Part shown: piece after piece, positions 40,804-63,598 of the stretch
Layout: the number at the start of each line of letters is the position of its first letter
How positions within the stretch are numbered: position 1 is the first letter of the stretch
DNA from: Candidatus Dojkabacteria bacterium
Lineage (GTDB): Bacteria > Patescibacteriota > Dojkabacteria > JAHIVN01
Length of the DNA: 64,000 bases
NCBI GenBank assembly: GCA_016932045.1
Contig: JAFGDO010000011.1
Coordinates: 5,997 to 69,996 of the forward strand
Direction of reading: 5' to 3'
Made by a program: the position numbers and the translations under genes
Notes under the pieces: model-generated
The model's database searches: none
What the model saw: the letters and a program-made list of their open reading frames with translations, nothing else
What the model was told of the DNA's origin: nothing

Positions 40804-40813
40804 GAATAAATAA

Positions 40814-41395: not shown

Positions 41396-41462
41396 AGTAT
41401 AGTCTTGGAAATAATTTTGTAGTAATATGTAATCTAGAAAATGATACTATCTTACATTTTGC

Positions 41463-42404
41463 TTGTTTCTTATAATGAAGTTTTTTCTAAAATCGATCAT
41501 AAATAGAATTAAGAAGAGAGATGAATCAGGGCAAATGTTGCTTTTTGTCTTGGTTGTAATTTTATTATTGCTGATCATAGTTCTTGCTATTGTTGTAAAC
41601 GTAAGGGTAGATATAAAAGAAACTCAAATGGAAAGGGAGTATGAGATGGGATACGCTATAGCAGAGGAACAAATTTTTAAAATTGCTTCTCTGGGCTATG
41701 CTGATGCAAAGGCGGAAAATGATAGTGCAAATTCGTGTTATACAAACACAGGTGATACTGGAACATTCTGTCCAGGAACAGAAGGGTGTGCTGGGGGCTG
41801 GGTGTGTACGGCCTATTGCTGCAAGGACTCACCTCCTTCAGGATGTGACTGTGACAGCGGAGATTGTTTTGTTGATAAAGTGTGCACTCACAATAGTATA
41901 TTTGGTGTATCTATAAATCAAGATGAAACTTTGGAAGTCGACCTCGGTGGACAGTCGGTTAGTGACTTTACAGATATATTTATTGATTGGGATACTGCAG
42001 AGGCTATATCTTTAATGGTTGTTTACAAGGATGGCCCTGGTAATTATCTAAATCAAAGGTTAGCAATGTGCAGAGAAGGCAATAATGGTTGCTATACAGG
42101 ATTTATAAACTATGATAATAGTCTGAATCTTGAATCTGACTGGAAAGGTGGCGTTACTATTTCCGGAACTGCAGTACTAATGAGAATAAGAGCGATTGGT
42201 GGTCAGGCAACAAATGTAACTGTTACAGGCAGTAACCTTCCCGTACAAATGGATGAAGTACGAGTTCAAGGTTTTACTGAAGGAGTAGCAGATGCAAAAG
42301 GTTTGTCTGCTCCTGAAGTTACAACATTAGCGATGAAGAATAAAAGGTTACCTGCTCTATTTGATTATGTACTATTTGTAGCAAATGATGATGTTACTAA
42401 ATAG
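41463..42404 (+). CDS. Pilus-associated membrane-anchored Cys-rich protein (PilX-like position)
   Basis: There is an N-terminal pilin-like hydrophobic helix without E+5. The Cys-rich module is CPGTEGCAGGWVCTAYCCKDSPPSGCDCDSGDC. Confidence 0.45.
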   Translation: MFLIMKFFLKSIINRIKKRDESGQMLLFVLVVILLLLIIVLAIVVNVRVDIKETQMEREYEMGYAIAEEQIFKIASLGYADAKAENDSANSCYTNTGDTGTFCPGTEGCAGGWVCTAYCCKDSPPSGCDCDSGDCFVDKVCTHNSIFGVSINQDETLEVDLGGQSVSDFTDIFIDWDTAEAISLMVVYKDGPGNYLNQRLAMCREGNNGCYTGFINYDNSLNLESDWKGGVTISGTAVLMRIRAIGGQATNVTVTGSNLPVQMDEVRVQGFTEGVADAKGLSAPEVTTLAMKNKRLPALFDYVLFVANDDVTK

Positions 42405-42421
42405 TTATATTAATTTTTAAA

Positions 42422-42829
42422 ATGTTTGTACAAATGGCAGAGACAAAAGAAGCTAAAAAAAGACGGGTGTTAATTGTAGATGATGAGCCCGACCTGCGTA
42501 TGATGTTTAAGGACATTCTAGGTACTTTCGGGTACGAATTAGATGAGGCTAGCGATGGAGTTGAGTGTCTGGAGAAGCTAAAAAAGGGCAAATATGATCT
42601 TATCCTGCTCGATCTTATGATGCCTAGAATGGATGGTATGGAGGCTTTAACACGTATAAAGCAAGAGCCAGATAAGTATGGGAGTGCTCCTGTTCTCATT
42701 CTCACGAATCTTACAAGTGATGTGGCTATAAAGGAGGGATTTGAAAGGAAAGCTGATGGCTATCTTATCAAAACAGAGCTGACCCCGGAGCAAGTGGTGA
42801 AAGAGATAGAAAAGTCATTAGGTAAGTAA
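42422..42829 (+). CDS. Single-domain response regulator (CheY-like receiver)
   Basis: VLIVDDEPDLRMM...YDLILLDLMMPRMDG...PVLILT is present, with the phospho-acceptor Asp and the conserved Lys region. There is no output domain. Confidence 0.85.
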   Translation: MFVQMAETKEAKKRRVLIVDDEPDLRMMFKDILGTFGYELDEASDGVECLEKLKKGKYDLILLDLMMPRMDGMEALTRIKQEPDKYGSAPVLILTNLTSDVAIKEGFERKADGYLIKTELTPEQVVKEIEKSLGK

Positions 42830-42887
42830 AACATTAAAAAAACAGTTGTAAAAATACTCTTAATTCGCAATTTCGTTCTACTATTAT

Positions 42888-43439
42888 ATGAAGGTTCTTC
42901 TTGATAGGTTAAAAATGCTTTGTGACAATAAGATAATACTTATTGTATTTATACTCATCCAGCTGGTACTTCTCTATGGTTTGACTTATTGGGGTTATCA
43001 CTCCTCTCGCCTACCCTACTGGTTTGATAACTTTGTGCACGAGACGAGAGTATGGAGGATTTACGGTAGAAAAGATTATAGTGTGCGGCCTGTTAGTCCT
43101 GAGACTTGGTTGGACCCCAGGCTAGGTTTCCTAAAGAAATCTTTTTGTGTACAAGAGATAAATGGATTCTTAAGAGGGAAAGAGGTGGTCAGTGAGGAAA
43201 AGGAGTATTGGTATATTGAATCCAGTGATCATCCAGAGGTAAAGATAGAAGTGAATAAACCCGTTGGTGAGGTTTTCTTGAAAGATTGCCGAGATACTGA
43301 GGATTGCAGCAAAGTTCAGGAAGTATCAGGAAATATTGATGAAGTAGAAGTCGGAGATGCTTTGATTATCCTGCAGGAGGAATCATACGAAGAGGAGCAT
43401 ACGATAAAAACTGGGACTATACGTATAATTAAATATTAA
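42888..43439 (+). CDS. Hypothetical membrane-anchored protein
   Basis: 183-aa ORF with an N-terminal TM. Confidence 0.4.
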   Translation: MKVLLDRLKMLCDNKIILIVFILIQLVLLYGLTYWGYHSSRLPYWFDNFVHETRVWRIYGRKDYSVRPVSPETWLDPRLGFLKKSFCVQEINGFLRGKEVVSEEKEYWYIESSDHPEVKIEVNKPVGEVFLKDCRDTEDCSKVQEVSGNIDEVEVGDALIILQEESYEEEHTIKTGTIRIIKY

Positions 43440-43448
43440 AATGGTCAT

Positions 43449-43826
43449 TTGAAGAAAGTAACTTTGGTGCTAAAAATCATAGCAGTTGTTTTTTTTGTAT
43501 TGAATCTATTTGTGGGTATAGTTATGATTCTCAATGTTGCAAACATGAAGAATAAGTCGTTTTTTTATCTACACAAGTTGAGTAGTGATGGTGGATTGGA
43601 TGAACCAAAGGTGAATCAGTTAATTGAGGATTGTAACTATGCAGATGAAGTGCTTGTATGTAATACGAATAATGATTTTATGATTTGGGGGAGGTATGAA
43701 TATGGTTTGGGGAAATTATCAGCGGGGACTTGTGAAGTTCTTGGGCTTGATAAAAATGGTTTGTCTTACTGTGCAAGAGGCGAAAATTATTTATGGATTC
43801 AGCCCGTTACTTATGAGGAACGTTAG
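43449..43826 (+). CDS. Hypothetical membrane-anchored protein
   Basis: 125-aa ORF with an N-terminal TM and a conserved Cys pair. Confidence 0.4.
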   Translation: MKKVTLVLKIIAVVFFVLNLFVGIVMILNVANMKNKSFFYLHKLSSDGGLDEPKVNQLIEDCNYADEVLVCNTNNDFMIWGRYEYGLGKLSAGTCEVLGLDKNGLSYCARGENYLWIQPVTYEER

Positions 43827-46731
43827 TTGTACTACAAGGAAGATTTTATATTGTTTGACTAGTACTTTTTTGGTGCTGATGTTTTGTGTTTTATTGTTCA
43901 GGGCTAGTGAAGTAAATGCTGTTTGCGGTGATTGTGGGTCATGCGGTCACCAATGCGGCTCAAGTTGCAGCGGCTGTGCATTGTGTTGCGCTTGCGGTGG
44001 AAATCCTTCTTGTGGTACTGGCAGCTACCCTTACTGTTGTAAGGACTGCAATAAAGGTGGGCATACAGATTGCTGCTGTGGAGGTTGTTTTCCTCCTGAA
44101 ACAAAAGTTACCATGGCGGATGGTTCTTTTAAGAATATCGAGGATATGAATGAGGGAGATGAGATCCTTACTTATAATGATGATATAGGAAAGAATGTTG
44201 CTGGAGAAGTACTCCAGGTTAAAACTTTTTCGAGAAATGGATATTATGTAGTGAATGACAATTTGCTAAAAGTTAGCGACAGTCATCCTATATATGCAAG
44301 GAAGTGGTATGGGCGGGAAACGTGGGCAGCTATAAATAAGTTTCAGGGGATTGTTGACTCAGGGTTAACGGAGCTGTCTTCACTTGAGGTTGGTGACAGC
44401 ATTTTGAATCAGGAGGGCGAATGGATACAAATAACATCTTTAGAATATTTTGCTGGAGGACTTGAAACATACACTTTAGTTTCCGACAATGGAACATTTT
44501 ACGCTGAGGGTTTTTTAGTTCATAATAAAGGATGTAGTTGTCAGACACCCAACGGAGTATCTTTAGTTTCTCCTGCAAATGGTACAGTTGAAATTGCATC
44601 GACTAGTGTTACATTGGACTGGACAGACACTTCTGATTGGAAAAAATGTTGTGATGACTGCAGTAAACATTACGAAGTTAGATTGAAGACAACTGGTGAT
44701 TGGTATGAACCAGGCGATTGTACTAATCCAACTTCTTCGACTTGTACTGTATCAGGTTTAAGCTGGTGTACAACCTATCAGTGGCAGGTAAAAGCAGATA
44801 ATGGGTGCAAATCATCAAGTTATACAGGGGTGTGGACATTTAAAACGAACTGTCTTCCGGAAGTTATTTCAGTAACGCCATCAGGGAATTGGTCTGGGAC
44901 AGAAACTGATACGGATAATGCCTCGGGATGTAGTGATAATAATCCTCAGACTTTCCAGATTGAATATAGAGATCAAGATGGGCATGATGATCTGTACTCA
45001 CTGGGGATATGGATAGATGACCAGGCTCCGCATGTGATGCAGATGCACAGCTCAATGCATGGAATGGCATCAAGAAGAGAGGGAGATTGGAGGATGTTTG
45101 GTTGGAGCTGCGATACAAGCAGACATGACACATGCGGGAGTTTACTAGATTGTGATTGTTATCTGAATTGGGATCTTGATGTGCCTTATTATGGTGTTGT
45201 TATTCCAGAGTCAACATACTCAATTTGTTCACCGAAAACTATTACAAATAGATCTGATGAATCACCATGGGATTTTTATGCCTTGTGTGATCCTCAATAT
45301 GCTCCACCAGTGAATTGGACAATATCAAATCTTCAGGGTTTTCCAGCTTCAAATACTAAGCTGGTTGACTGGAAGGTATGGTTTTATGGGGATATTGGAA
45401 CAAACTTAGATATCTATGCTGTAGCTATTGATGAACATGGGGCAAGATCAGGCAACTGGCAGGACATAGGAGACTGGAAGTTGGATCTGGACCTGCCTTT
45501 GGCAGACCCAGCACCACAGCCAAATTCGGCTTCACAAATGAGGGTTGACTGGGCAGTAAGTGAGGCAAAAAGCGGTATAAGAACAATAGACAGAGATTGC
45601 AGGAGTGATTTAGGAAGTAGTGATATTCCTGATTGTGGATGTGCAACAGGATTATGTACAACGTGTGAGAATCCTGCTGATCCACAGACATGTTATAGGG
45701 GGAGGAATACGAATTGGAAGAAAGCAGATGGAACTGATGACGGGGTGGATGACGTGGTAATGCCGGGAGGGACAAGCTGGACACATACGAACTACGATAC
45801 GATAACAGACATATCAAGTATAGAAGACGTACAATACAAGCTGACAGTGTCAGATAATGCATGTAATCAAAATAGGGTCGTAGATGAACAGGAATTGGGC
45901 AAAAGATGGATAAGGACAGATTATGGAGATACATATGCAAGTGGAGGATATAGTCTGCAGATACCGGATTTGATAGCTGAGGATAAAAGAGACAACCTTT
46001 CAAGATTCATATGCTCATCAGGGGTAGCAGTGAATGCATTTAGTCCTGGGGGAGCAAGTGTATATAATTATAGACTTTTTAGTTATGCAGATGAGAATAA
46101 GAATAAGACGTTTTATGATTATCTTGAAGAGATAGTAAGAGAGAATGATGATCATGAAAGCTGGAACATGGGAAGCTTCAGTACACCAGCACAGTGGGAT
46201 GGGATACAAAGCGCAGGGACAGACGGAGTGTATGAATGGACAGCAGGGACAGATTTAAACCTTTCAGGGAAGAATTGTACTGCAAAGACATTAGTATTTG
46301 TTCCATCTGGGCAGCTTATTATAACGCCGAATTTCGGGGTAACTGATGTAAGTGTAGCTGGGAGTGATAATGGATGTGTATTTGTAGTAAGGGACAATAT
46401 AGTGATACAAGCAGGAGGAGTAGGAACAGGATCATATTCCTCACCATATTATCCAGACACTGTACCATATGATTCGGTATATGGATTCTTCATCACAGAT
46501 GGGAATGTGATAATAGATGCTGATACAAACTATGACCAGCTCTTGATAAAGGGAGGGGTGATAAGCAGGGGGGGGACATTTGGAAGGGACTTACTCCTGC
46601 TAGATAATCTAATATTTGCAGCAGAGAGGATAGAGTATGATGCAAGGTATCTGGACATATTGAAACCGTACATAGGAAGTAATTACACGTATAAAGTAAG
46701 AGAATACAAATATTCTGAACCTACCTACTAA
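43813..46731 (+). CDS. Large secreted protein with a bacterial intein-like (BIL/Hint) autoprocessing domain. Start chosen at MRNVSC; the ORF-track start is 43696.
   Basis: The signal peptide is MRNVSCTTRKILYCLTSTFLVLMFCVLLFRASEVNA. It is followed by a ~55-aa Cys/Gly/Ser-rich segment, then the Hint module CFPPETKVTMADGSF...LKVSDSHPIYA...TFYAEGFLVHN at nt 44086-44526. FN3-like and large C-terminal domains follow. Confidence 0.7.
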   Translation: MRNVSCTTRKILYCLTSTFLVLMFCVLLFRASEVNAVCGDCGSCGHQCGSSCSGCALCCACGGNPSCGTGSYPYCCKDCNKGGHTDCCCGGCFPPETKVTMADGSFKNIEDMNEGDEILTYNDDIGKNVAGEVLQVKTFSRNGYYVVNDNLLKVSDSHPIYARKWYGRETWAAINKFQGIVDSGLTELSSLEVGDSILNQEGEWIQITSLEYFAGGLETYTLVSDNGTFYAEGFLVHNKGCSCQTPNGVSLVSPANGTVEIASTSVTLDWTDTSDWKKCCDDCSKHYEVRLKTTGDWYEPGDCTNPTSSTCTVSGLSWCTTYQWQVKADNGCKSSSYTGVWTFKTNCLPEVISVTPSGNWSGTETDTDNASGCSDNNPQTFQIEYRDQDGHDDLYSLGIWIDDQAPHVMQMHSSMHGMASRREGDWRMFGWSCDTSRHDTCGSLLDCDCYLNWDLDVPYYGVVIPESTYSICSPKTITNRSDESPWDFYALCDPQYAPPVNWTISNLQGFPASNTKLVDWKVWFYGDIGTNLDIYAVAIDEHGARSGNWQDIGDWKLDLDLPLADPAPQPNSASQMRVDWAVSEAKSGIRTIDRDCRSDLGSSDIPDCGCATGLCTTCENPADPQTCYRGRNTNWKKADGTDDGVDDVVMPGGTSWTHTNYDTITDISSIEDVQYKLTVSDNACNQNRVVDEQELGKRWIRTDYGDTYASGGYSLQIPDLIAEDKRDNLSRFICSSGVAVNAFSPGGASVYNYRLFSYADENKNKTFYDYLEEIVRENDDHESWNMGSFSTPAQWDGIQSAGTDGVYEWTAGTDLNLSGKNCTAKTLVFVPSGQLIITPNFGVTDVSVAGSDNGCVFVVRDNIVIQAGGVGTGSYSSPYYPDTVPYDSVYGFFITDGNVIIDADTNYDQLLIKGGVISRGGTFGRDLLLLDNLIFAAERIEYDARYLDILKPYIGSNYTYKVREYKYSEPTY

Positions 46732-46855
46732 GGATCAAAACGATTAAGCAACTTAACCTTCATGCATTTAGATCACTTACTTCATTGTTGCTTAATGGTC
46801 CCGAATTATCTATACTGTCTTAGAGTATTTAAATTATTCTTCTTGTGACGTTATT

Positions 46856-47332
46856 ATGAGCAAGAGAAGAATCGGCTATATATTTATTCTTGTTGGTGTT
46901 CTAGTTGCAGTCTTTTCAGGTGTTGTTGTTCTATCACTAACCTTGAAGGAGAAAGAGGAATATAAGGAAATAGAAGAGATTGAGGAGGAAGAAGGGTTTG
47001 AAGAGGAAAGTCCCGAAGAGATAGTAAGGGAAGCTTTTGGAGGGGTTTATCCTTTAAGCGGTGAAATTATTGAGATAGACGTAGGTGAAAAGTGGATAAT
47101 GGTAAAGGTTGATGATGAAGAAAAAAGGTTTGATATTTCAGATAACTTTAAATGCGAGCAAATAGGTATGCCGGGTCAGGTTTGCGAAAGTATGGAAGGC
47201 ACCGGATGTGATTTGGAACCGTTAACTTGTAGGCTTTCTTCTGTCGAAATAGAGAATTCTCTTGGCGTTGATTTGGAGATTGATTCGGATAACGAGGCTG
47301 TATTTTTAAGAGTACATTACATTGCCCATTAA
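46856..47332 (+). CDS. Hypothetical acidic membrane-anchored protein
   Basis: N-terminal TM and a Glu-rich low-complexity region. Confidence 0.4.
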   Translation: MSKRRIGYIFILVGVLVAVFSGVVVLSLTLKEKEEYKEIEEIEEEEGFEEESPEEIVREAFGGVYPLSGEIIEIDVGEKWIMVKVDDEEKRFDISDNFKCEQIGMPGQVCESMEGTGCDLEPLTCRLSSVEIENSLGVDLEIDSDNEAVFLRVHYIAH

Positions 47333-47340
47333 TTTTTCGC

Positions 47341-49422
47341 ATGGCCAAACTGAAAGATAAAGAAAATTATATTCTAGTATTTCTATCCTCTTCTCTTCTC
47401 TTTATAACGATACTATTGTTTTTTCCTGGAAGAATTTTTGCAGCAGGTGCAAATCCACTCGAAAGGCTACCTACTGGAAAAACAACACCTGATGATTTAG
47501 GTTGGACATATATCGGGTCCAGTGTTGGCGGGTATAAGTGCTATGATTTAGCTAGTTATGGTGTAGAAAAGGTCAGATATGTTATGTTCTTAAATGATTC
47601 AAATCAGACTGAATGGGATGTAAGAGGTGCAGATCCTGATGGTGTACTTGTGATACACGCAGAAGATCCTGCTTATAACGGAATCGGAGCAAATGCTGTT
47701 GCGCATGTAAAGATCGGAGACGGGGGTGTAGGCAAGTATGGATGTAATGATGATGGAAATCTAAGTCGCGTTCTGGGAGCTCCAAAAAGATGTGGAGGAA
47801 CTCCGGGATGTGCTTGTGCTCTTGGTCACGATCCGGAGCCGGGACAATACGGCGGAGAAAGTGGGTATGTTATATTGGATGTTGCTTGTGGTACTAATAT
47901 AAATCCACTGACTTGTAGTGGTCCAGAAAGTGAGGATAGTGGAAGGCTGATAGTTGATAGGCCTGGCAATGACTTTTGTGTGTCTGAAGTTGGTTATGGA
48001 GAATCTCATAGACTTTATACATTAGATTACTATGCAAATGCACCTGAAGTAACGGTAAACAAACCCGAGAATTGTGCAAATGAGTTTGTGTTTAGAATTA
48101 CAGCAAGGGATGATGAGGATCAAGGAGTTTCAAAATTTACGCTACTTCTTAATGATAAACGTAGTGGTCCTTGGGTGGTAAGGTCTGACCGTCTAGGAGT
48201 CGATCTGGAGGCTGGCGGTAAAAATAGTCTTGGAGCAATTGTGGAAGATTATAGAGAGCCTTCAAGTAAAGAATCTATACTTGAACTTAAAGTAGGAAAT
48301 TTATCTACAAGATTTGATGAAGAAGATATAGGTGTTTTAGCTGAAGTGGAAGATAAGCGGGGACAAATAGGCAAGGGCGACGGAGGGACCTTTATCTCGG
48401 GTTTAAAGCCAGCAGTGGAATTCTTGAATGATTCCAGGGAGGAAAATACTATAACTTTGAGTTGGCAAGTGAGCGATAATCGGCCACTTGCAACAAAATG
48501 CAATTTTTCGTGTGCTGGAGACGGAGCTTGCAACTGTGGGGCTATTCCATGTCCAAGTATGAATCCAGAGACAGTATCAATTTCTTGTACACTCGAAACA
48601 ATCGGCAGCTATAATTTCGAATATACTGTAGAAAACATTTGTGGTTCTGATACAGATAGTCAGGGAGCTACATTGGGAGCCCCATGGCTTATGACGGCTT
48701 ATGGTGATACTTATGCACATCAGGGGTTTGGTACTTTGGTAATGCAGGATGTTATCGATGATACTATGGTATCTTCCTGGGCTAAAGGTGAGCCTCCAGG
48801 CAGTGGGAATCAAGCATATTTTTCAACATACATAATTTCAAAGTTTGATCAAAATTATCCTAGTAGAACAAGTTTGTTAAATTACTTACTTTCTCCTTAT
48901 GAGGATAGGAATGTATCTAAAGTTGGTACTCCAGATGAAGTTTACCATTTTATGTTTGCTCTTGCTCAATCTAATGAATGTTTTGATTCTGGTTTTTGTT
49001 CGGAAGTTCTAAATAAAGATGTTGATGTTTCCAGTATGAACTGTGAGGCGACGCATGTTTATTTTGTAGATGGGGATCTAAATTTTATTGGCAGTGGCAG
49101 TTTCTTGGCGTCCCCAAATGAAGCGTGTGTTTTTGTTGTGAAGGGAAATGTCACAGTGGGATCAGGGGTCGAAAGAATAGACAGCTTTATACTTTTAGAT
49201 GGACAGTTCGAAACTGAAATTAGTGGTACAACACTTGTTTTGCAAGGGGGGGTAATAACAGATAATTCTCTTTTTAAAAGATCCTTAAGCGGTTTTCAGA
49301 ACAATGATATGCCAAGTGAAATCATTATATATGATGCAAAGTATCTGGATTTACTTCGAGAATATATAAGTCAGGGATACACTGTCAAAATAAGAGAATA
49401 TAGTTATTCAAGTGTTAAGTAA
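47341..49422 (+). CDS. Large secreted protein, paralog of the C-terminal part of 43813-46731
   Basis: A signal peptide is present. Shared blocks are AYGDTYAHQGF, CVFVVKGNVTVGSG and LQGGVI. The shared C-terminal block is YDAKYLDLLREYISQGYTVKIREYSYS. Confidence 0.65.
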   Translation: MAKLKDKENYILVFLSSSLLFITILLFFPGRIFAAGANPLERLPTGKTTPDDLGWTYIGSSVGGYKCYDLASYGVEKVRYVMFLNDSNQTEWDVRGADPDGVLVIHAEDPAYNGIGANAVAHVKIGDGGVGKYGCNDDGNLSRVLGAPKRCGGTPGCACALGHDPEPGQYGGESGYVILDVACGTNINPLTCSGPESEDSGRLIVDRPGNDFCVSEVGYGESHRLYTLDYYANAPEVTVNKPENCANEFVFRITARDDEDQGVSKFTLLLNDKRSGPWVVRSDRLGVDLEAGGKNSLGAIVEDYREPSSKESILELKVGNLSTRFDEEDIGVLAEVEDKRGQIGKGDGGTFISGLKPAVEFLNDSREENTITLSWQVSDNRPLATKCNFSCAGDGACNCGAIPCPSMNPETVSISCTLETIGSYNFEYTVENICGSDTDSQGATLGAPWLMTAYGDTYAHQGFGTLVMQDVIDDTMVSSWAKGEPPGSGNQAYFSTYIISKFDQNYPSRTSLLNYLLSPYEDRNVSKVGTPDEVYHFMFALAQSNECFDSGFCSEVLNKDVDVSSMNCEATHVYFVDGDLNFIGSGSFLASPNEACVFVVKGNVTVGSGVERIDSFILLDGQFETEISGTTLVLQGGVITDNSLFKRSLSGFQNNDMPSEIIIYDAKYLDLLREYISQGYTVKIREYSYSSVK

Positions 49423-49519
49423 GAAGTATTTTTTTTGTTTTTACTAAATATATAGATTCTCTTTTGTACTAGACAGAAGTATTAAAATCTCTTATACTAA
49501 TAGGTAGACAATTATTTTT

Positions 49520-50599
49520 TTGATTAAACATCTTATGAACCTGCCCGATTTTTTTGGCTTAGATATTGGAACTCACTCAATAAAGGTTTGTCAGCTGAGA
49601 TGGCAAGGCAAAAATCCTACCTTGATAGCGATCGGCAATACGGCAACTCCAAGGGGAATACTCGGAAGTGAGAGTGAGGAACATCAGAAGGAGTTAGCAA
49701 GACATATTAAACTTGCGCGTAAAGATGCGGGGATTAGCGTTGATAAGGCAGTTGTTGGTTTACCAGAAGCAAGAATTTTTACCCAGCTAGTTACGGTCCC
49801 AAAAGTAGAGGAAGGAAAGGTTGAAGAACTCATTCACTGGGAGGCAAAAAAGTATGTTCCTATCCCGATTGATGAGGTAAGAATAGACTGGATATTTTTG
49901 GGAGAGAGAAATATAGATGGTCAACCCCATCTTGATGTCTTTCTTATTGCAGCTCCCAATAATCTCATAGAACGATATATAAAGGTGATGAAATATGCAG
50001 GAATAGAACCTATTGGTATAGAGACTGAGTCGATTTCAACTACCAGAGCGTTGTGGTGGCCGACACAGATGGGAGTAAAAGATGCTGATTCTCAAGAATC
50101 ATCATCGGTTATGATCTTAGACTTTGGAGCAAATAGTACTGATCTTTCAGTTGTACAAGCTGGTTCTCTACTCTTTTCACAAAGCCTTGTAACAGGATCA
50201 GATGCGCTTACAAAAGCGCTAGCTTCCGATTTCGGATTGGATGTTCAACAAGCCGAAGAGTACAAAAGAAATTATGGTCTCGATGAAACTCAATTAGAAG
50301 GTAAGATTGCTAACTCCCTAAAGCCTGTAATGCAAGTAATTACAAATGAAGCACGAAAAACACTCGATTTCTTTAAATCAAGATTTGAGAAGAGTACTCC
50401 AAGAAGGCTCTTATTAGTTGGAGATGGAGCAAAATTACCCGGAATCCTGACTTTTATGGCAACTGAACTGGGTATAGAAGCAGCGTTAGCAGACCCTTTT
50501 GCAAATGTAGCGGTTTCGAAAAATGTCGAGAGTAAATTTCAGCAGATCTCATCTGTTGGATATTGTGTAGCTCTTGGTTTATCATTAAAGACTGAGTAA
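49520..50599 (+). CDS. pilM: Type IV pilus assembly protein PilM (actin-like ATPase fold)
   Basis: FFGLDIGTHSIKVCQL is the phosphate-1 motif. LVGDGAKLPG is also present. Confidence 0.85.
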   Translation: MIKHLMNLPDFFGLDIGTHSIKVCQLRWQGKNPTLIAIGNTATPRGILGSESEEHQKELARHIKLARKDAGISVDKAVVGLPEARIFTQLVTVPKVEEGKVEELIHWEAKKYVPIPIDEVRIDWIFLGERNIDGQPHLDVFLIAAPNNLIERYIKVMKYAGIEPIGIETESISTTRALWWPTQMGVKDADSQESSSVMILDFGANSTDLSVVQAGSLLFSQSLVTGSDALTKALASDFGLDVQQAEEYKRNYGLDETQLEGKIANSLKPVMQVITNEARKTLDFFKSRFEKSTPRRLLLVGDGAKLPGILTFMATELGIEAALADPFANVAVSKNVESKFQQISSVGYCVALGLSLKTE

Positions 50600-50711
50600 G
50601 TAATATTTCAGTGGTCGAATTCTCATTCGGATCTGTAGAGCGGAATATATAATAATCTAAGGATCAACTGAAAGCGAAGGATTTTCTATAGTATATCTTT
50701 TATCTAGTATA

Positions 50712-51284
50712 ATGCCAGTATATAAACACACAATTGATTTCTTACCTAAGCCTAGTACAGAAGAGGTTGAAGAACGCTTTAAAGTATCAAAGGCAGGTGT
50801 ATATGCTGCAATTCTTCCGCTTCTTGCTGCTTTAATTTGGCTGGCTGCGGTCTTTATCAATTTCTACTACAGGAATGAGGTGAAACAAGTAGAAGCAGAG
50901 ATTCTTGCTAAACGTGTAGAGGTTGATTCATACTTGGAAACCAGGAGGAAACAAACGGAACTTGTGTTGAAAGTTGACTCATTAACGGACTTGGTTCAAA
51001 AGGATTTTTTTCCTCAAAAATTTTTTGATGATGTTTCAGATACAATTAAATCTACAGGAGATGCTCAAGCGACTATATATGCATACGGTCGAGAAGAAGA
51101 TGGTATGTTTAGTATAGAAGGGCGGGCAAACTCTTATCTTGATCTTGCTAAGATAATGGTTGTTTTTACTGGTAAGCGTGAGTTTGAGAATGTGATTATA
51201 AAATCTATTCACTATAATCCAGAGAGAAATAATGTGAATTTCGAAATAAAGTTTTACTATTCGGGATTATTGGAAGAAGTTTAA
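50712..51284 (+). CDS. pilN: PilN-like bitopic pilus alignment protein
   Basis: A single TM is followed by a coiled coil and a periplasmic-type domain. The gene sits directly after pilM. Confidence 0.5.
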   Translation: MPVYKHTIDFLPKPSTEEVEERFKVSKAGVYAAILPLLAALIWLAAVFINFYYRNEVKQVEAEILAKRVEVDSYLETRRKQTELVLKVDSLTDLVQKDFFPQKFFDDVSDTIKSTGDAQATIYAYGREEDGMFSIEGRANSYLDLAKIMVVFTGKREFENVIIKSIHYNPERNNVNFEIKFYYSGLLEEV

Positions 51285-52219: not shown

Positions 52220-52450
52220 CTACTCAACCTTCAGATATACTCGAAGATTTCTTTCTCTTGCTAAAATTGAAAGTATTGAACGTATTGCTTTTATATTTGT
52301 TCCTCCCTTTCCAATTATTCTACCCTTATCGTCATCGTGAACTTTGATTTTGTACGTGACAACTAATTCATCCTCTTCAATTTCCTCGACTTCAACACTT
52401 TCAGGTTTAGTGGCTAGTTTTGTGAGTAAAAACTCTAAGAGTTCTTTCAT
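52220..52450 (-). CDS. KH-domain RNA-binding protein (YlqC/UPF0109 family)
   Basis: The KH GxxG loop is IIGKGGTNIKAIRSIL. Length is 76 aa. The position directly downstream of rpsP is typical. Confidence 0.8.
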   Translation of the reverse strand: MKELLEFLLTKLATKPESVEVEEIEEDELVVTYKIKVHDDDKGRIIGKGGTNIKAIRSILSILARERNLRVYLKVE

Positions 52451-52456
52451 TTCTTT

Positions 52457-52906
52457 TTATTTAGATTTATCTTTTTTATCCTCAGTCTCAACTTTTTTTT
52501 CTTTTTCCTCTTTGGGTTTGGACTTTTCCTCGGGTTTAGGCTTTTCTTCCTTTTTCTCTTCTATATCCTTTTTTACTTTCTTTTCTTTTGTCTGCGGTTC
52601 CTTTTGTTTCTCTTCCCCTTTAAGAATTTCTTTTTTAGGTTTCAGAGGAGGTCTCTTTGGTCTTTGTTTCTTTTCAATAAGTTTATGCTTTGCTAATATA
52701 CTCCTTACTGTATCTGTGGGCTGTGCTCCAACAGAAAGCCAGTATTTTGCTCTTTCTACATTTACTTCTAATTTTTTACTGATTGGGTCGAGATACCCAA
52801 GATATTCAACAGCCCTGCCATCTCTTTTTGTCCTTGCTTTTATGACAATGATTCTATACGACGGCTGATTCCTTTTTCCTGTTCTTTTTAAACGTATCTT
52901 TAACAT
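52457..52906 (-). CDS. rpsP: 30S ribosomal protein bS16 with a ~65-aa Lys/Glu-rich C-terminal extension
   Basis: [41 protein letters not shown] is present. Confidence 0.9.
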
Positions 52907-54756: not shown

Positions 54757-55044
54757 TTGCTAAATATGGAAATCAGTGAATTAGAGGGATTGGCCAGATT
54801 TTTTCAAGATATGCGGGATCCTAGGGGGGCTACTATTCGTGATATGGTGAATGAGTATTGTTATCGGCTTGGAATATGTACCGATGAAGCGCAACTGGCA
54901 GCAGTAGTACGACAAGATCCATTGGTAGCTGCCTTAAATGCTCAAGATGAACCAAAGGTTGAAGTTACTGATGCTGATATAGCAAGACTTGAAGGCGCCG
55001 TAAATAGGGCGATACAAGCTTGGCAGCAGAGAGGGGGAAGGTAA
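54757..55044 (+). CDS. Hypothetical small protein (95 aa)
   Basis: ORF with GC visibly higher than its neighbours (~45%). I recognise no motif. Confidence 0.3.
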   Translation: MLNMEISELEGLARFFQDMRDPRGATIRDMVNEYCYRLGICTDEAQLAAVVRQDPLVAALNAQDEPKVEVTDADIARLEGAVNRAIQAWQQRGGR

Positions 55045-57747: not shown

Positions 57748-59709
57748 TTAGAACTTTTTAAATGTTACCAGATAGGACTTTTTCTTGAAGAGGATATAAT
57801 AAATAATAAGATCTAAAATTACTATCATTACTCCAGTATATGTTGTGAGAGTAGTCCGTGATCCTGTTTCTGGAAGTCTATCAGTACTGAATCCGCCCGA
57901 ACTTACAAGACCAGAAATTTTCCAGTACTCTACTCCACCCTCTGTACTTACACTTACATTCGTGTTGTTTAAGCTTAAGTAGTAAATGTCTGGACAATTT
58001 GAGTTTATATCGTCAAGAGAAGAGGCACCCGGGCATATACCAATAGCATTTCCATTATTTCTTGGTACATATAAGGTAAAACCGTTCCCTGTTGCTCCGG
58101 GTATAGAATTGAATCCGCCCGGATAGTGGAAAAATGCTTTATTTAGACTACTTCCAGCAGAAATTTGCGACCAATCCCTGTCCTCTGAAAAATCAACACT
58201 TAGGGTTGCAGTTCTATAATTTGATGGATTATGGATAATACCGACTTCCAGATTCCCATTTTGGCCGTTAACTTCAACATCAGTTGCCCAGTCAGATGTC
58301 AGGACAGCTGTTAAATTGCTTGGAATATTTATAAGATTACTTACATAATAGCTATTTAAGTTTAAGATCCAACCAGCGCCACGCATGCTTCCTCCATCAT
58401 CATCTCCCCTTGATCCGACTAAAATATCTTCCATCTTGTCATTATTTATATCTCCAAGGTTCACTACAGCTGAACCGAAATAGTCATCCTCGGTATATGT
58501 TCCTGTGAAATTTCCCTCTGAAGTGTCTATTTTCTGCTCGGACTTAACTGTACCACTTGAATTTAAAAACAAAACCCATACTGCACCGAATTGTCTTGTG
58601 CCATTGTAAACTCCCTCTGCTCCAATAACGAGGTCTGTTACGTTATCTCCATCCAGGTCACCAGCTTGAGTCAGAGAACATCCAAAATAATCATAACTAT
58701 TTAGGACCCCGCTGAAATTCCCTTCCATATCACTTATTTTTTGATATGAACTTACAGTGCCGTCGGAATTTAAAAAAAGAATCCATGCTGATCCGTGGTT
58801 GGATCCACCGTCGTCATCGCCGCTTGCACCTACAGCGATATCCAAAGCTCCGCTAGCATCGAGGTTGCCTAGTGAAGTTATAGACTCTCCAAATAAATCT
58901 CCATTATCAAGAACTCCATTAAAGTTGCCCTGGGTATCACTTATTTTCTGAAGTGAGTTTACAGTTCCGCTAGAGTTTAAGAATAAAACCCAAACAGCTC
59001 CTCTATTTGTGTTTCCATCATCATCTCCCTGTGCCCCTACAGCAATATCTTCAACAGTATCTCCATTGAGGTCAGAAAGACCTGCCATAGAAGATCCAAA
59101 GTAATCATTGTCATCTAATGTCCCGGTAAAAGATCCTTGGGTACTACTTATTTTTTGGTGAGTTCTTACTGTTCCATTAGAATTTAAGAAAAGGATCCAT
59201 ACTGCTCCTCGAGCAGTTCCCCCGTCGTTATCGTACATCGCACCGACAGCTAGATCGGGATTATTATCATTATCAAGATCACCTATAGAAGCCACAGACA
59301 TACCAAATGAATCGCCGTCACTTAAAGTTCCAGTAAATCCTCCCTGAGTATCACTTATTTTCTGATGGGATTTTACTGTGCCATCAGAATTCATGAAAAG
59401 AATCCATACCGCACCATGATTGGTTCCGCCGTCGTCATCTCCGTATGCTCCAATAGCTACATCGGTAACTCCGTCATTATCAAGATCTCCTATAGAAGCA
59501 ACTGAAGATCCAAATTCGTCGTCGTCGGCTAGTATTCCCGTGAAAGAACCATTTGTATCACTTATTTTCTGGTATGACTTAACTGTACCATAGTTAGAGG
59601 ATTGAGCATGGCTGATATCTATGAAGGGCTTATAATAATACCCGAGAAGTATTAAGAATAGTGTTAAGAAAATGAAACTAACAAATGTTTTTTTGAGCCT
59701 TTTCCCCAT
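57748..59709 (-). CDS. FG-GAP repeat (integrin-alpha-like beta-propeller) surface protein with a C-terminal TM anchor
   Basis: There are seven tandem ~65-aa repeats of the form ...FG.S.A..GD.N.DG..D...GA...DDGG...GA.W.LF.NS.GTV.S.QKISDT.G.F.G.L.... Confidence 0.8.
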   Translation of the reverse strand: MGKRLKKTFVSFIFLTLFLILLGYYYKPFIDISHAQSSNYGTVKSYQKISDTNGSFTGILADDDEFGSSVASIGDLDNDGVTDVAIGAYGDDDGGTNHGAVWILFMNSDGTVKSHQKISDTQGGFTGTLSDGDSFGMSVASIGDLDNDNNPDLAVGAMYDNDGGTARGAVWILFLNSNGTVRTHQKISSTQGSFTGTLDDNDYFGSSMAGLSDLNGDTVEDIAVGAQGDDDGNTNRGAVWVLFLNSSGTVNSLQKISDTQGNFNGVLDNGDLFGESITSLGNLDASGALDIAVGASGDDDGGSNHGSAWILFLNSDGTVSSYQKISDMEGNFSGVLNSYDYFGCSLTQAGDLDGDNVTDLVIGAEGVYNGTRQFGAVWVLFLNSSGTVKSEQKIDTSEGNFTGTYTEDDYFGSAVVNLGDINNDKMEDILVGSRGDDDGGSMRGAGWILNLNSYYVSNLINIPSNLTAVLTSDWATDVEVNGQNGNLEVGIIHNPSNYRTATLSVDFSEDRDWSQISAGSSLNKAFFHYPGGFNSIPGATGNGFTLYVPRNNGNAIGICPGASSLDDINSNCPDIYYLSLNNTNVSVSTEGGVEYWKISGLVSSGGFSTDRLPETGSRTTLTTYTGVMIVILDLIIYYILFKKKSYLVTFKKF

Positions 59710-59791
59710 TGGCAGTTAATTCTTTTTGTTATCTTATAGAACTTGTTCAGTCTAGTATAATTTATAATAAATGTCAAAGCAGATCTAAAAT

Positions 59792-61315
59792 TTATGAACA
59801 CTTTACATTATATATCGAGCTTCTATTCAGAACTTTACCGGAAAAATGGTTGTAAAGTTCGAAGTAAAAATCCATTTGTGCGGTAGGTACAACAGGCTGA
59901 CTTTTTTGGAATTGGAAACCTGTTCCTGCTTGACTTGGATTTGTGATAAACCAAGTTTTAATTGCTTCCCACGAAGATCCATTAAAGAATTTTCCCTCTT
60001 CGTTCTGTATGAAAAACCTTACCTTAAGGTGGTCTAAAGGTATGTTATAGTAATTCCCCTTTCCACTAATCGAACCGGTATATGTACCCCCTGTATTTGG
60101 ACTAAAGTCTGCGGGACTGAAATTCCCGCTTGAGAGATCGAGATACTGACCTTGTGAAGTTATGATATTTGTCTGCTTGGATTGATTTACCCCAACTACG
60201 TTACAATAATATGTTACCCCAGAATTTAGACCTACGTTCGGGAACAGATATGTGGGATTGTTTGTATTTGACCAACCTCCCTTATCAGCAGCACCTGGAG
60301 CTGTTCCTATTGAAATCCGATAATATGAAGCATTTTGACTTTGCCAGGAACAGGTCACATCAAAATTTACCTCATTTATTGATATAGTTACGTTTGATAC
60401 TATTGGATCCAGAACAGGAATATTATTATGTTCACCGTTTTCTGTTGATTCGCCTTCTACTTCGCCCTCTTCTACTTGTTCATTTTCAGTAGCATCCTCT
60501 ATATTTATTTTACATTCTAAATGAGATTTATGCTGTTTTAGATAATTTTTAACTTTTTCCGAGTCAGTTTTTAAGATCTCTTCAAAATATTTATCCAAAC
60601 ATTCTATGAATTCATACCAATAGTCTTCCTTTAGAGTTATGTCTTTTTTGAGGGTTAATAGTTCTTCCCGATTTGTTATCTTATTTATTTCAGAATCATT
60701 ATTCTCAAACATTTTCCCGGCTTCAAGTAGAATTTCATTCTCTTGAAACTCTAGGTCTTGAAGTTTTAAGACTATTGTTCCCTCATGAGTATAAAAGGTT
60801 GATGTGTTTTGTTGAGTGTAGCATTCAAATTCAGTCCCCCTTATTACTGCAATTGTATTTGATGTCTCTAACTGATAATCAGCTTCTTTTCCTGTTAGAT
60901 TTACAACTCGTGACCAGGTTCTTCCTATAAGTTGCTTTATTTTCACGTTAAAACTTTCGTCTTCCTCTTTGTGATGGATAATTTCAATTTCTGTGTTGTG
61001 ATCTAGCGAGATTATGCTATTATCGCTAAAAATGATATATCCGAGTCCAGTATCATCTGTTTTTATAACATCGCCCCTGTAGATAGTGACTTCTCCGCTG
61101 GATACTGATATTTCTTGGTTATTTCTAGTTATGCTGATATTCGGTTCGACGATGACAAGTAAGGCTGAGGCATCATCATCTTGTGGGAGATAATTAGCTT
61201 TTTTTGTATCTTTGTCACTTTGTGCAAGTAAAACGAGACCCCATGAAAAGAAGAATACAAAAAAAAATATTATAAAAAATTTGATGGTTATCCTTTTACT
61301 AATTTTGAAAGACAT
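59792..61315 (-). CDS. Secreted protein with a FecR-like domain
   Basis: A signal/TM anchor is present. GEVTIYRGDVIKTDDTGLGYIIFSDNSIISLDHNTEIEI resembles a FecR fold. There is an acidic linker and a C-terminal beta-rich region. Confidence 0.5.
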   Translation of the reverse strand: MSFKISKRITIKFFIIFFFVFFFSWGLVLLAQSDKDTKKANYLPQDDDASALLVIVEPNISITRNNQEISVSSGEVTIYRGDVIKTDDTGLGYIIFSDNSIISLDHNTEIEIIHHKEEDESFNVKIKQLIGRTWSRVVNLTGKEADYQLETSNTIAVIRGTEFECYTQQNTSTFYTHEGTIVLKLQDLEFQENEILLEAGKMFENNDSEINKITNREELLTLKKDITLKEDYWYEFIECLDKYFEEILKTDSEKVKNYLKQHKSHLECKINIEDATENEQVEEGEVEGESTENGEHNNIPVLDPIVSNVTISINEVNFDVTCSWQSQNASYYRISIGTAPGAADKGGWSNTNNPTYLFPNVGLNSGVTYYCNVVGVNQSKQTNIITSQGQYLDLSSGNFSPADFSPNTGGTYTGSISGKGNYYNIPLDHLKVRFFIQNEEGKFFNGSSWEAIKTWFITNPSQAGTGFQFQKSQPVVPTAQMDFYFELYNHFSGKVLNRSSIYNVKCS

Positions 61316-61368
61316 ATGTTTATTTTCGACTAAGAATTAAAAACGATTATAAATTTATAAAGAGTTAA

Positions 61369-63417
61369 TTATTTCGTATACCAATTCCACGATCCGTCCC
61401 AGTTTGAAGACGGTGGAGACTTACTAAAATTTCCTGCTCTTTTGGACATCATCAAAGCTGGATAAAATCTAAATTTGGTGTAAATGTCTTTAAATTTTGC
61501 TTTTGCTTTTTTAAAATCTCTTTTTTGATACAACTTAAGTACATTTTCATATTTTTTCTTTACTATTTCAAGTTTTTCGTTTCTGAAACCCATTATTGAA
61601 TAGATATCTAAAGCGTTTTTCTTGCCCTTGACTCTGACATAATCTAATTTACAGATACTAAATTTTGTAAATTTCTGGTTCCTTTTTAATTCGTTTACTG
61701 TTCCTCCAGTAATAAGTATCTTTTCCCTGTATTCTTTAGTCAATCCTTCCAAACGTGCTGCTACATTCACCAAATCTCCTAAAACAGTATAATCGAATCT
61801 GTCCTTACTGCCGATATTTCCTACGATCATATTGCCTGTGCTGATCCCTATCCCATTTCTTATTATAGGAAAATTATTTGTAGCTGTATATTTTTTATTA
61901 AATAGAATTATCTTTTCAATAATATTTATTGCCGTTTTACATGCATTGTAAGCATGATTGGGGTCATTTATGGGGGCATTCCAAAAACTCATAACATTAT
62001 CTCCTACAAATTTATCTATAGTTCCATTATTCTCAAGGATTTCTTTTGCAATGGTATCAAAATACTTATTCATGAGATAAACTAAATCCTCGGGTTTCAT
62101 GTTTTCAGAAATTTTTGTAAATTTTCTAATGTCCGAAAAAAGAACAGTCATCCTCCGTTTTTCACCTCCAAGTTTTAGGTTTGATGGATCCAGGAGTATT
62201 TCATTCATAACTCGGGGATTTACATAGTGCCCAAGAGCATTGCGGATACTTTCTGACTCATGTTTTTCTTCTAAATATCTTGTTATTAATGAAATTATCC
62301 ATGTAAAAAGTATAGCAAAAGGTGTGAGCAAGACATCCATTATCAATCCTGTATCATATACAACTAGACATATTATCAAATATACTACTGTTATTCCTAA
62401 AGTAAAAAGGAGTGAGTATCTTATGCGTATGATAGACGAGAAAAAAAAGACAGTGAGTAGCAAGACAATTATTATGAATAGTTGAAACTGAAATGGAATT
62501 TGATATAGGATTTCTTTTTCCAAAACCGTGTTTATGGCATTTGCCTGAATTTCAACCCCTGAAATCATTTTCCCGTCCAGAGGATTAATTAAGTTGTCAC
62601 TTATATCCTCGGCGGTAGACCCGACAAGCACAATTTTGTCTTTAAAAAAGTCCTTAGGATACTTACCATCTAGTGCGTCTGTGAAGGGAACTTCCTGGAA
62701 ACTACCTGCTGGACCTGTGTAATTAATTCTTATTATTTCATCTTGTACTTGGATCTCAGTAAAACCCAGTTTTATGGTGCCCTTTTCGCAGTCTATATCT
62801 TTAGCACTCCCAAAATATTCCGACAAAACCTCAAAAGAAAAGCTTGTGGCACATTCGTTATTTATATATTGCAGACCGTAAATGTTTCTTACCTTGCCAT
62901 CTCTATCACATGGAAAATTTACGAAACCGTAGGTAACATACTGTTTATATAAGTCACTTGGGAGTATTTCTTCCCCATTCGATAGTTTCGAGGCAAAAAC
63001 AATATTTGTTTGTGATGTTTCAAGTGCTTTTGCAAAAACTTCATCGCCTTCTCTACTTTCTGCAAATATGATATCAAATCCTATAACCCTTGGTCTTTCT
63101 TTTTCTAAAATTTCTACCAGATCTGCATATTTATCCCGATCCCATGGCCAAGCACCCAGCTTTTCAAGACTTTGATCATCAATTGTAATGATAACAATCT
63201 GGTCAGAGGGTTTTTTTTCCTGCAGTAAGAGGTCACTAAGATAGGTCTGCCATTCAAAGAGGACAACTGGTTTCTTATATATATTAAAAAGGCATACAAT
63301 AAGAACAATGACGAAGATCCATATGAGATTTTTAAACTTATAACCATTAAAGAATTTTCCCTTTGGAATCGAATTTATGAACTTTTTAATAGTATAGCCA
63401 AGGGCAGATTTCATCAA
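61369..63417 (-). CDS. CHASE2-sensor class III adenylate/guanylate cyclase
   Basis: The N-terminal CHASE2 sequence is VIITIDDQSLEKLGAWPWDRDKYADLVE. TM helices follow. The cyclase core is TVLFSDIRKFTKISE...GTIDKFVGDNVMSFWNAP...GISTGNMIVGNIGS. Confidence 0.8.
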   Translation of the reverse strand: MMKSALGYTIKKFINSIPKGKFFNGYKFKNLIWIFVIVLIVCLFNIYKKPVVLFEWQTYLSDLLLQEKKPSDQIVIITIDDQSLEKLGAWPWDRDKYADLVEILEKERPRVIGFDIIFAESREGDEVFAKALETSQTNIVFASKLSNGEEILPSDLYKQYVTYGFVNFPCDRDGKVRNIYGLQYINNECATSFSFEVLSEYFGSAKDIDCEKGTIKLGFTEIQVQDEIIRINYTGPAGSFQEVPFTDALDGKYPKDFFKDKIVLVGSTAEDISDNLINPLDGKMISGVEIQANAINTVLEKEILYQIPFQFQLFIIIVLLLTVFFFSSIIRIRYSLLFTLGITVVYLIICLVVYDTGLIMDVLLTPFAILFTWIISLITRYLEEKHESESIRNALGHYVNPRVMNEILLDPSNLKLGGEKRRMTVLFSDIRKFTKISENMKPEDLVYLMNKYFDTIAKEILENNGTIDKFVGDNVMSFWNAPINDPNHAYNACKTAINIIEKIILFNKKYTATNNFPIIRNGIGISTGNMIVGNIGSKDRFDYTVLGDLVNVAARLEGLTKEYREKILITGGTVNELKRNQKFTKFSICKLDYVRVKGKKNALDIYSIMGFRNEKLEIVKKKYENVLKLYQKRDFKKAKAKFKDIYTKFRFYPALMMSKRAGNFSKSPPSSNWDGSWNWYTK

Positions 63418-63598
63418 TAATGCAGTCTTTTCGGGCTTTAAGTAAATATTGGTATTTTAATTTATTGGTAGCAATCTATTTTAATTAAAACTGATATCTA
63501 AGAGGAAAATTACATAAGAACCTTGATAAATCTATTTTTTAAAGTGTTGACATTGAATTATTTGTGTGAAGTATTATGCTCTTCGGGCTTGTAATGAT

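Follow-up and report, generated by a model that had tools for sequence, protein, structure and literature searches.

Gene content of the locus

A window of 64 kb with 56 open reading frames (ORFs), which is the whole stretch of DNA analysed here, from the reduced genome of a Candidatus Dojkabacteria bacterium (candidate division WS6, candidate phyla radiation (CPR)), carries three consecutive genes on the minus strand, which encode a receptor-type cyclase with a CHASE2 sensor domain, a FecR-domain protein and an FG-GAP (integrin-alpha-like) surface protein (Table 1). The evidence assembled below points to the first two genes as the core of an extracytoplasmic sensing unit which recurs in distant phyla, and to the third as a lineage-specific neighbour. 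The three ORFs lie at exactly the coordinates given in a preliminary description made from the letters of the sequence, and its surmise of a reduced genome agrees with the source, a tiny CPR bacterium which probably depends on a partner.

Entries 100% identical to all three proteins exist at NCBI, from a contig of 124.6 kb, under the names 'adenylate/guanylate cyclase domain-containing protein', 'FecR domain-containing protein' and 'FG-GAP repeat protein'; all three are already correctly domain-annotated in public databases. The genes are co-oriented and separated by 53 bp (cyclase/FecR) and 82 bp (FecR/FG-GAP). Terminator-like sites between the three genes were not found, and a promoter-like site with 10/12 matches is located in the FecR/FG-GAP gap.

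The predicted adenylate cyclase

The N-terminal part of the cyclase matches the CHASE2 family over almost the entire profile (PF05226, E 1.7e-54, 185.5 bits versus a cut-off of 26.3, profile positions 3-254 of 257) and is followed by a class III cyclase domain (Guanylate_cyc, E 3.4e-21, 76.1 bits), in agreement with the fusion initially proposed. Because hydropathy indicates one transmembrane (TM) segment before CHASE2 (residues 25-55) and approximately three TM helices after it (residues 302-380), the predicted topology places CHASE2 outside and the catalytic domain inside the cell, with the order TM1, extracytoplasmic CHASE2, three TM helices and cytoplasmic class IIIb domain.

The catalytic site appears complete, with D429 and D473 as metal-binding, K469 and T544 as substrate-specifying and N551 and R555 as transition-state residues. 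All six are invariant when 31 homologues are aligned, and the signature D-D-K-(T/S)-N-R is present in all 88 CHASE2-cyclases surveyed, with the substrate-specifying pair being K/T in 71 and K/S in 17 of them. In alignments with PDB entries K469 pairs with the Glu that sets specificity in the guanylate cyclase Cya2 (2w01) and with the Lys that replaces it in the engineered adenylate cyclase form of Cya2 (6fht), while the counterpart of T544 is the Thr of OaPAC, a photoactivated adenylate cyclase. The first purine-specifying position is Lys in adenylate cyclases versus Glu in guanylate cyclases, the pair of Cya2 being E-G (PMC4215837), and Thr at the second position is a mark of class IIIb adenylate cyclases related to soluble adenylate cyclase (PMC3383692). 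Given the K469/T544 pair and the signature common to all 88 CHASE2-cyclases, the protein should, as judged from these residues, be a class IIIb adenylate cyclase and not a guanylate cyclase, with cAMP as the expected product. The preliminary description had left the choice between cAMP and cGMP to a comparison of the K/D with the E/C residue pair; with Lys in place of Glu, and Thr instead of either Asp or Cys, the cAMP half of that proposal is retained and the cGMP half is given up.

The FecR-like protein

The match of the second protein to the FecR family in Pfam is modest and above threshold (E 2.7e-8, 34.6 bits versus a cut-off of 24, residues 82-181), and weak NCBIfam matches are to the Leptospira FecR-domain lipoproteins Lsa33 and LipL45. 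An AlphaFold2 model built on a five-sequence alignment (mean predicted local distance difference test score (pLDDT) 68) divides the protein into an N-terminal helix (residues 7-39), a beta domain (residues ~50-206), a disordered acidic linker (residues 227-299) and two well-predicted beta-sandwich domains (residues 300-507, that is ~300-400 and ~410-507, pLDDT 80-90). With Foldseek, the top match of the FecR beta domain is the C-terminal cell-surface-signalling domain of PupR (6ovk_R, E 2.1e-6), followed by the anti-sigma factor BDI_1681, and the C-terminal half of the protein finds tandem pairs of fibronectin type III (Fn3) domains. A LysM domain, as in the COG4254 members of Burkholderia and Pseudomonas, was searched for without a match, the additional domains being Fn3-like instead.

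Four full-length orthologues with 39-44% identity were recovered, and among these four no signal-peptidase site is conserved after the helix of residues 7-39, for which reason the helix is read as a membrane anchor. While the FecR domain of the initial assignment is supported by both the Pfam match and the fold, the signal peptide and secretion that came with it are not, and the protein is probably tethered to the membrane by a signal anchor rather than secreted after cleavage.

Pairing of CHASE2-cyclases and FecR-domain proteins across genomes

To place the two genes in context, 87 other CHASE2-cyclase loci were searched with a profile seeded from the FecR domain of the window. A FecR-like ORF is found at a distance of <=400 bp in 30 of 84 non-redundant loci and within <=5 kb in 40 of the 84. 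When only loci with >=2 kb on both sides are considered, 23/59 have a FecR-like gene within <=400 bp, whereas permutation of the same 59 loci gives 2.7 on average and never more than 10 in 2000 trials, the observed number thus being approximately 8-fold above the mean. Most adjacent cases are on the same strand, and the commoner order, FecR upstream of the cyclase on the same strand, accounts for 23/33 adjacent cases before removal of duplicates. All loci of CPR bacteria and DPANN archaea with enough flanking sequence are paired, namely those of WWE3, another Dojkabacteria bacterium (with two FecR genes), a Patescibacteria metagenome-assembled genome (MAG), Woesearchaeota and two Saccharibacteria. 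The adjacency of FecR and CHASE2 genes is strongly non-random, and the adjacency in other bacteria mentioned in the preliminary description is borne out by these counts as well as by the literature (PMC5192318, PMC9239204, PMC5498481).

Several of the surveyed loci deserve mention in their own right. In the Woesearchaeota locus (L009, 249-3319) the FecR-like gene is located directly upstream of the CHASE2-cyclase, and CHASE2-cyclases of DPANN archaeal MAGs (L009, L010, P0043/P0090) are 32-35% identical to the Dojkabacteria enzyme; a sharing or exchange of the cyclase/FecR pair between CPR bacteria and DPANN archaea is suggested. In WWE3 (L002, 8835-13096) the FecR and cyclase genes overlap by 4 bp, and 6 bp after the cyclase gene the 'third' position is taken by a beta-propeller gene of another family, GSDH (glucose/sorbosone dehydrogenase-like). 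Next to the cyclase homologue that ranks third in similarity (42% identity; L089, 111-2519) lie, after 60 bp, a response regulator consisting of a receiver (REC) domain only and then enolase; the contig provides just 110 bp upstream of this cyclase, and a FecR gene may lie further out.

The FG-GAP surface protein

The assignment of the third protein to the FG-GAP/integrin-alpha group is well founded (Pfam FG-GAP, E 6e-32, 109.4 bits; FG-GAP_2, E 5e-20). The number of repeats is six, each of 69 residues, and not seven as first counted; the AlphaFold2 model of the propeller region consists of 24 strands with pLDDT >90, which arrange into six four-stranded blades, and a seventh blade contributed by non-repeat sequence is unlikely. 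The best matches among solved structures are integrin alpha propellers (E ~1e-18) with TM-scores of just 0.4-0.55, which fit a blade number differing from that of integrin alpha. Calcium-binding-like loops, also part of the preliminary description, can be read from the repeat sequences as D-x-D/N-x-D-x-x-x-D in five of the six repeats, with the fourth degenerate (NLDASGALD). The six-repeat consensus is common to 22 homologues and the six-repeat unit as such is very common, with 5516 hits in many phyla. A tandem repeat at the DNA level was not found in the FG-GAP gene, thus the repeats have diverged at the nucleotide level.

Instead of a plain membrane anchor, as initially assumed, the C-terminus combines LPETG, a hydrophobic segment and a KKK tail, a sorting signal of the sortase type and the sole one of the LPETG type among the 56 ORFs of the window. 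In the orthologue P0135, LPVSG followed by a hydrophobic segment and a basic tail occupies the same position. The N-terminus has a hydrophobic region followed by S-H-A (S-Y-A in the orthologue), which is compatible with a signal-peptidase site, and the protein is predicted to be a wall-anchored sortase substrate. The 157 residues preceding the anchor (455-611) reach a pLDDT of 30-50 in a model from two sequences and have no confident fold. Recent horizontal acquisition of the gene was considered and rejected, as its G+C content at third codon positions (0.298) is close to the window mean (0.310) and its higher overall G+C content is explained by Gly and Asp codons.

Conservation of the three-gene order

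Conservation of the propeller gene next to the pair is shallow. In jackhmmer searches with the whole protein and with the C-terminal 198 residues, none of the 87 other CHASE2-cyclase loci was found to have an FG-GAP gene. It is likewise absent beside two FecR-like orthologues (39-44% identity), three FG-GAP propeller homologues from other phyla have neither a FecR nor a CHASE2 neighbour within 6 kb, and other LPXTG proteins do not occur within <=4 kb of any surveyed cyclase. A consistent third gene in the CPR/DPANN loci was sought and rejected, the position being taken by the GSDH propeller in WWE3, the REC-only regulator downstream of the third-closest homologue, a DUF3307 protein or, in several cases, a protein with no Pfam match.

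The full order is found in one relative, split over two contigs of the same sample (L001 and L088; SRR24270824) whose ends overlap by 6 nt (AACAGT). L001 encodes a SpoU-type methyltransferase, the cyclase (60% identity) and the first 279 residues of the FecR-like protein, and L088 encodes the last 230 residues of the FecR-like protein, a full-length FG-GAP orthologue (69% identity) and YjbQ, the break in the protein corresponding to residue 279/282 of the FecR-like protein of the window. When joined, the contigs reproduce the order cyclase-FecR-FG-GAP with ~55-69% identity, followed by YjbQ versus YdjM in the window. A further contig (Joint Genome Institute (JGI) 3300042731) contains a cyclase fragment, the FecR orthologue P0242 (43% identity) and an incomplete gene of >=558 codons with an unread identity; a metagenome scan with the alignment of FecR orthologues, which was aimed at this contig, returned one weak, unrelated FecR locus.

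As far as can be judged from these contigs, the three-gene order therefore appears to recur in a single close relative, or perhaps in two. Common descent would by itself preserve synteny between genomes with 55-69% identity, and for a proof of functional coupling the propeller gene is conserved over too short a distance; we regard it as a neighbour specific to one lineage, a Dojkabacteria subclade. The view of the three genes as one conserved module is consequently not supported in the form first given, FG-GAP genes being absent from the 87 other cyclase loci, although the order does exist elsewhere, in one relative.

Surroundings of the locus and the wider window

Upstream of the cyclase gene, at a distance of approximately 180 bp, lies a SpoU-type methyltransferase gene, and this arrangement is kept in the relative with a spacer of ~177 bp whose sequence is poorly conserved. 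On the other side, the FG-GAP gene is followed after 175 bp by genes for a YdjM-family membrane protein, a GH18 glycosidase and an RsmD-like methyltransferase. Comparison of the three intergenic gaps between the window and L001/L088 yielded no conserved promoter or terminator, the sequences being too diverged, and Rfam and tRNA scans of the region gave no match. The sole conserved intergenic stretch is AATTAACTGCC, the 11 bases directly 5' of the FG-GAP start codon (window 59710-59725; L088 742-757), which may be a translation-initiation or regulatory element.

Table 1. Features of the three-gene locus and of the type IV pilus cluster in the 64-kb window
Feature	Position	Strand	Remarks
Receptor-type adenylate cyclase gene (predicted)	61369..63417	-	682 aa from TTG; ATG at 63414 gives the 681-aa NCBI protein
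CHASE2 extracytoplasmic sensor domain (predicted)	62449..63300	-	aa 40-323, Pfam PF05226
Class III nucleotidyl cyclase catalytic domain	61594..62157	-	aa 421-608, Pfam PF00211
FecR-domain protein gene	59792..61315	-	507 aa
FG-GAP (integrin-alpha-like) surface protein gene	57748..59709	-	653 aa
Six tandem 69-aa FG-GAP repeats	58348..59589	-	aa 41-454; repeat register
Sortase-type cell-wall sorting signal (predicted)	57751..57876	-	LPETG aa 612-616, hydrophobic aa 621-643, KKK tail
Intergenic region, SpoU-type methyltransferase gene/cyclase gene	63418..63598	-	~180 bp; likely the promoter region of the three-gene unit
PilB-like ATPase with MshEN domain	32563-34737	+	
PilT-like ATPase	34934-36148	+	
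PilC	36325-37536	+	
Pilins with N-methylation motifs	37567-38058, 40814-41395	+	
Prepilin peptidase	38155-39018	+	
REC-only response regulator	42422-42829	+	
1011-aa protein	43696-46731	+	Fn3 and weak Hint-like match
PilM	49520-50599	+	

The neighbourhood was searched over the 56 window ORFs and a further 10 kb read beyond the cyclase end. Neither a cyclic nucleotide-binding or CRP-type protein nor a phosphodiesterase, a sortase, an extracytoplasmic function (ECF) sigma factor or a TonB-dependent transducer was found in this range, and a tetratricopeptide repeat (TPR) gene is absent from the window. Approximately 8.5-9.8 kb beyond the cyclase end (L090, 152-1540), a CYTH-domain protein, of a family which takes in class IV adenylate cyclases and triphosphatases, and an HD/YfbR-like phosphohydrolase are encoded beside a LexA gene.

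A type IV pilus cluster (32563-51284, plus strand), in which several ORFs have no Pfam match, begins and ends outside the gene cluster of the cyclase, from whose end it is separated by a few kb; a link of cAMP to these pili is speculation. Among the other genes of the window, two adjacent paralogues with a GreA/GreB C-terminal domain (150 and 218 residues; 19046-23283, minus strand) are encoded, the second of which overlaps an ORF of 988 residues with no Pfam match, and next to these a protein of 459 residues (23441-24820) has a C-terminal OmpR-type Trans_reg_C domain alone, with no receiver domain. A gene of the tyrosine recombinase/phage-integrase family (17749-18792, plus strand) coincides with a switch in coding strand and GC skew at ~17-18 kb. 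Ribosomal protein S16 (149 residues, Pfam domain residues 8-64; 52457-52906, minus strand) has a Lys/Glu-rich C-terminal extension of ~85 residues, whose low complexity probably also gives rise, as an artefact, to an ORF of 174 residues in the other direction (52344-52868). An ORF of 95 residues (54757-55044, plus strand), placed between NusB and the RsmD-like gene, has a G+C content of 0.444, unusually high for this genome, and no Pfam match; in the public assembly, a gene of 92 residues is called at its place.

Comparison with known systems

CHASE2 sensors and FecR-domain proteins have been brought together in several bacterial lineages. In Campylobacterota, clusters encode a CHASE2 cyclase, a cAMP phosphodiesterase, a FecR protein and a TPR protein, from which clustering one pathway has been inferred (PMC9239204). 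The common feature is a CHASE2 protein with class III adenylate cyclase domain beside a FecR-domain envelope protein; the phosphodiesterase and TPR genes and an outer-membrane location of the FecR protein are, on the other hand, particular to Campylobacterota, while the FecR-like protein of the window combines an N-terminal TM helix with two Fn3-like domains and its gene is followed by the FG-GAP gene. In Burkholderiales and Pseudomonas aeruginosa a LysM-FecR protein is encoded beside a CHASE2 histidine kinase (PMC5192318). In this 'BiofilmReg' operon of Burkholderia and the PA4035-type pair of P. aeruginosa (COG4254), the FecR-domain protein is equally encoded directly beside the CHASE2 sensor and the arrangement is order-wide, but the FecR protein has a signal peptide and carries LysM where Fn3-like domains are found here, the output passes through a histidine kinase and a CreB-like response regulator instead of a cyclase, and an additional slot is taken by a DUF4136 protein.

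The CHASE2 cyclases CyaD1, CyaD2 and CyaK of Sinorhizobium meliloti produce cAMP upon a plant protein signal relayed by NsrA (PMC13001267), and Clr, the cAMP regulator, has the FecR-domain gene smc02177 among its targets (PMC5498481). CHASE2 cyclases with an accessory envelope protein and a FecR-domain gene in the same regulon resemble the present locus, although the relay is the outer-membrane beta-barrel NsrA, neither a FecR protein nor a propeller, and the CRP-family receptor Clr is known there, with no counterpart in the window or the 10 kb beyond the cyclase end. The FecA-FecR-FecI and PupB-PupR-PupI systems share the FecR-type beta fold, PupR being the top structural match, and the principle that an extracytoplasmic protein relays a surface event across the cytoplasmic membrane; the Dojkabacteria protein, in contrast, lacks a cytoplasmic anti-sigma domain and is accompanied by neither an ECF sigma factor nor a TonB-dependent transducer, its presumed partner being CHASE2 and not a sigma factor. 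With integrin alpha and bacterial FG-GAP proteins the third protein has in common FG-GAP repeats with Asp loops of the calcium-binding type, with the difference that integrin alpha has seven repeats of ~60 residues and the protein described here six of 69 residues and an LPETG sorting signal.

Proposed mechanism and alternative explanations

The reading that we favour, with a probability of roughly 0.6, is that the core of the locus is a two-gene extracytoplasmic sensing unit, composed of the CHASE2 adenylate cyclase and the FecR-like protein, with the propeller outside the conserved unit. The cyclase would be a homodimeric class IIIb receptor with CHASE2 outside the membrane and a cytoplasmic domain that converts ATP to cAMP. 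Tethered to the same membrane by its N-terminal helix, the FecR-like protein would present its FecR beta domain as partner or co-sensor of CHASE2, and the two Fn3-like domains would extend outward on the flexible acidic linker. When a ligand from outside, probably a macromolecule, is bound or lost, the contact between FecR and CHASE2 would change, and this change would travel via the TM bundle to alter cAMP synthesis. Since FecR accompanies CHASE2 in cyclases and histidine kinases alike, CHASE2 is the probable point of contact. The wall-anchored propeller protein may be co-transcribed and may offer an outermost binding surface. What the analysis shows is the structure of the genes, their domains, the catalytic and specificity residues, the topology as far as hydropathy indicates it, the sorting signal and the statistical linkage of FecR and CHASE2 genes; the FecR-CHASE2 contact, the ligand, the direction of regulation, the role of the propeller and all steps after cAMP are what we infer, and a function in surface or adhesion sensing, as envisaged in the preliminary description, would belong to the same category.

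Several observations weigh against this proposal. The window and its closest relative show the minority order, with FecR downstream of the cyclase, in about half of the CHASE2-cyclase loci a FecR gene is missing from the nearest 5 kb, and two FecR-like orthologues (39-44% identity) have no cyclase nearby. In S. meliloti, the FecR-domain gene smc02177 is dispensable for perception of the plant signal (PMC5498481). Neither a cAMP-binding protein nor a phosphodiesterase nor a sortase was found in the range searched, and, because of the promoter-like site in the FecR/FG-GAP gap, the propeller gene may have its own transcription.

From some of these observations it could be argued that the three genes are unrelated neighbours, with a cyclase that senses alone and with FecR-like and propeller proteins as independent envelope proteins; such an explanation would be consistent with the loci which have no FecR gene nearby, with the solitary FecR-like orthologues and with the dispensability of smc02177. 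It is improbable in view of an adjacency which exceeds all 2000 permutations and recurs in distant phyla, in archaea and with a histidine kinase as output, as a recurrence across phyla and output domains is hard to explain other than by functional linkage of the pair. An extension in the opposite direction, in which all three proteins form one outside-in relay in a cell with no outer membrane and a calcium-dependent propeller binds the surface of a partner or host and signals through Fn3/FecR to the CHASE2 cyclase, is conceivable but rather unlikely. It would accommodate the co-orientation and short gaps of the genes with no terminator-like site between them, the extracytoplasmic nature of all three proteins, the gene order kept in the relative although the next gene differs, and the third contig, where cyclase and FecR precede the unread gene; an outer component that feeds CHASE2 cyclases also has its precedent in S. 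meliloti, with parallels in the steps from FecA to FecR and from NsrA to the CHASE2 cyclases. Evidence to the contrary is the lack of an FG-GAP gene in all 87 other loci and beside the two FecR-like orthologues and, conversely, of FecR or CHASE2 near the three propeller homologues, the changing and for the most part unannotated third gene of other CPR/DPANN loci, the promoter-like site before the FG-GAP gene and a synteny that common descent would equally produce. The propeller as outermost receptor, proposed from the synteny with the close relative, is thus rather unlikely, and the same applies, a little more strictly, to the full picture of a wall-bearing, outer-membrane-less CPR cell in which a three-tier contact-sensing relay converts binding of a partner surface into cAMP and possibly controls type IV pili.

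The identity of the individual proteins can also be questioned. The catalytic domain matches the PycC models of PADLOC (best 6.3e-28), and its best solved relatives by sequence are the guanylate cyclase Cya2 and its derivative, which might indicate an anti-phage pyrimidine cyclase of the Pycsar type or a guanylate cyclase. We consider this very unlikely: PycC belongs to the same class III superfamily and the match reflects the shared fold, an adjacent effector with a cyclic nucleotide-binding domain is lacking and no neighbour matches PADLOC, the architecture is that of a CHASE2 membrane receptor, and Lys takes the place of the Glu of Cya2 and other guanylate cyclases in a K/T pair typical of class IIIb adenylate cyclases such as the photoactivated ones. 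Equally, the Pfam FecR domain and the likeness to the periplasmic domains of PupR and BDI_1681 would be in line with a classical anti-sigma factor of the Fec type with an ECF sigma factor under its control, an assignment which is hardly tenable for a protein with only about six residues before its TM helix, hence with no cytoplasmic anti-sigma domain, and with neither an ECF sigma factor nor a TonB-dependent transducer within the range searched.

Significance

The locus is a CPR case of an already published sensor pair, the pairing being known from Proteobacteria and Campylobacterota. To our knowledge, the recognition of partner cells by CPR/Patescibacteria and DPANN archaea is largely unknown, as are the ligand and mechanism of CHASE2 in any organism. 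In the literature searched, no paper that treats CHASE2 together with Patescibacteria was found, and in oral Saccharibacteria an adenylate cyclase, not necessarily of the CHASE2 type, is among the fastest-diverging core genes (PMC9040727). If true, a three-tier relay with the propeller as outermost component would be a monoderm counterpart of FecA-to-FecR and NsrA-to-CHASE2 signalling and a first candidate host-sensing pathway for Dojkabacteria. The pair of CHASE2-cyclase and FecR-like protein is, since it has been kept in every assessable CPR/DPANN locus despite small genomes, a reasonable candidate for an environmental or partner-sensing input of these organisms.

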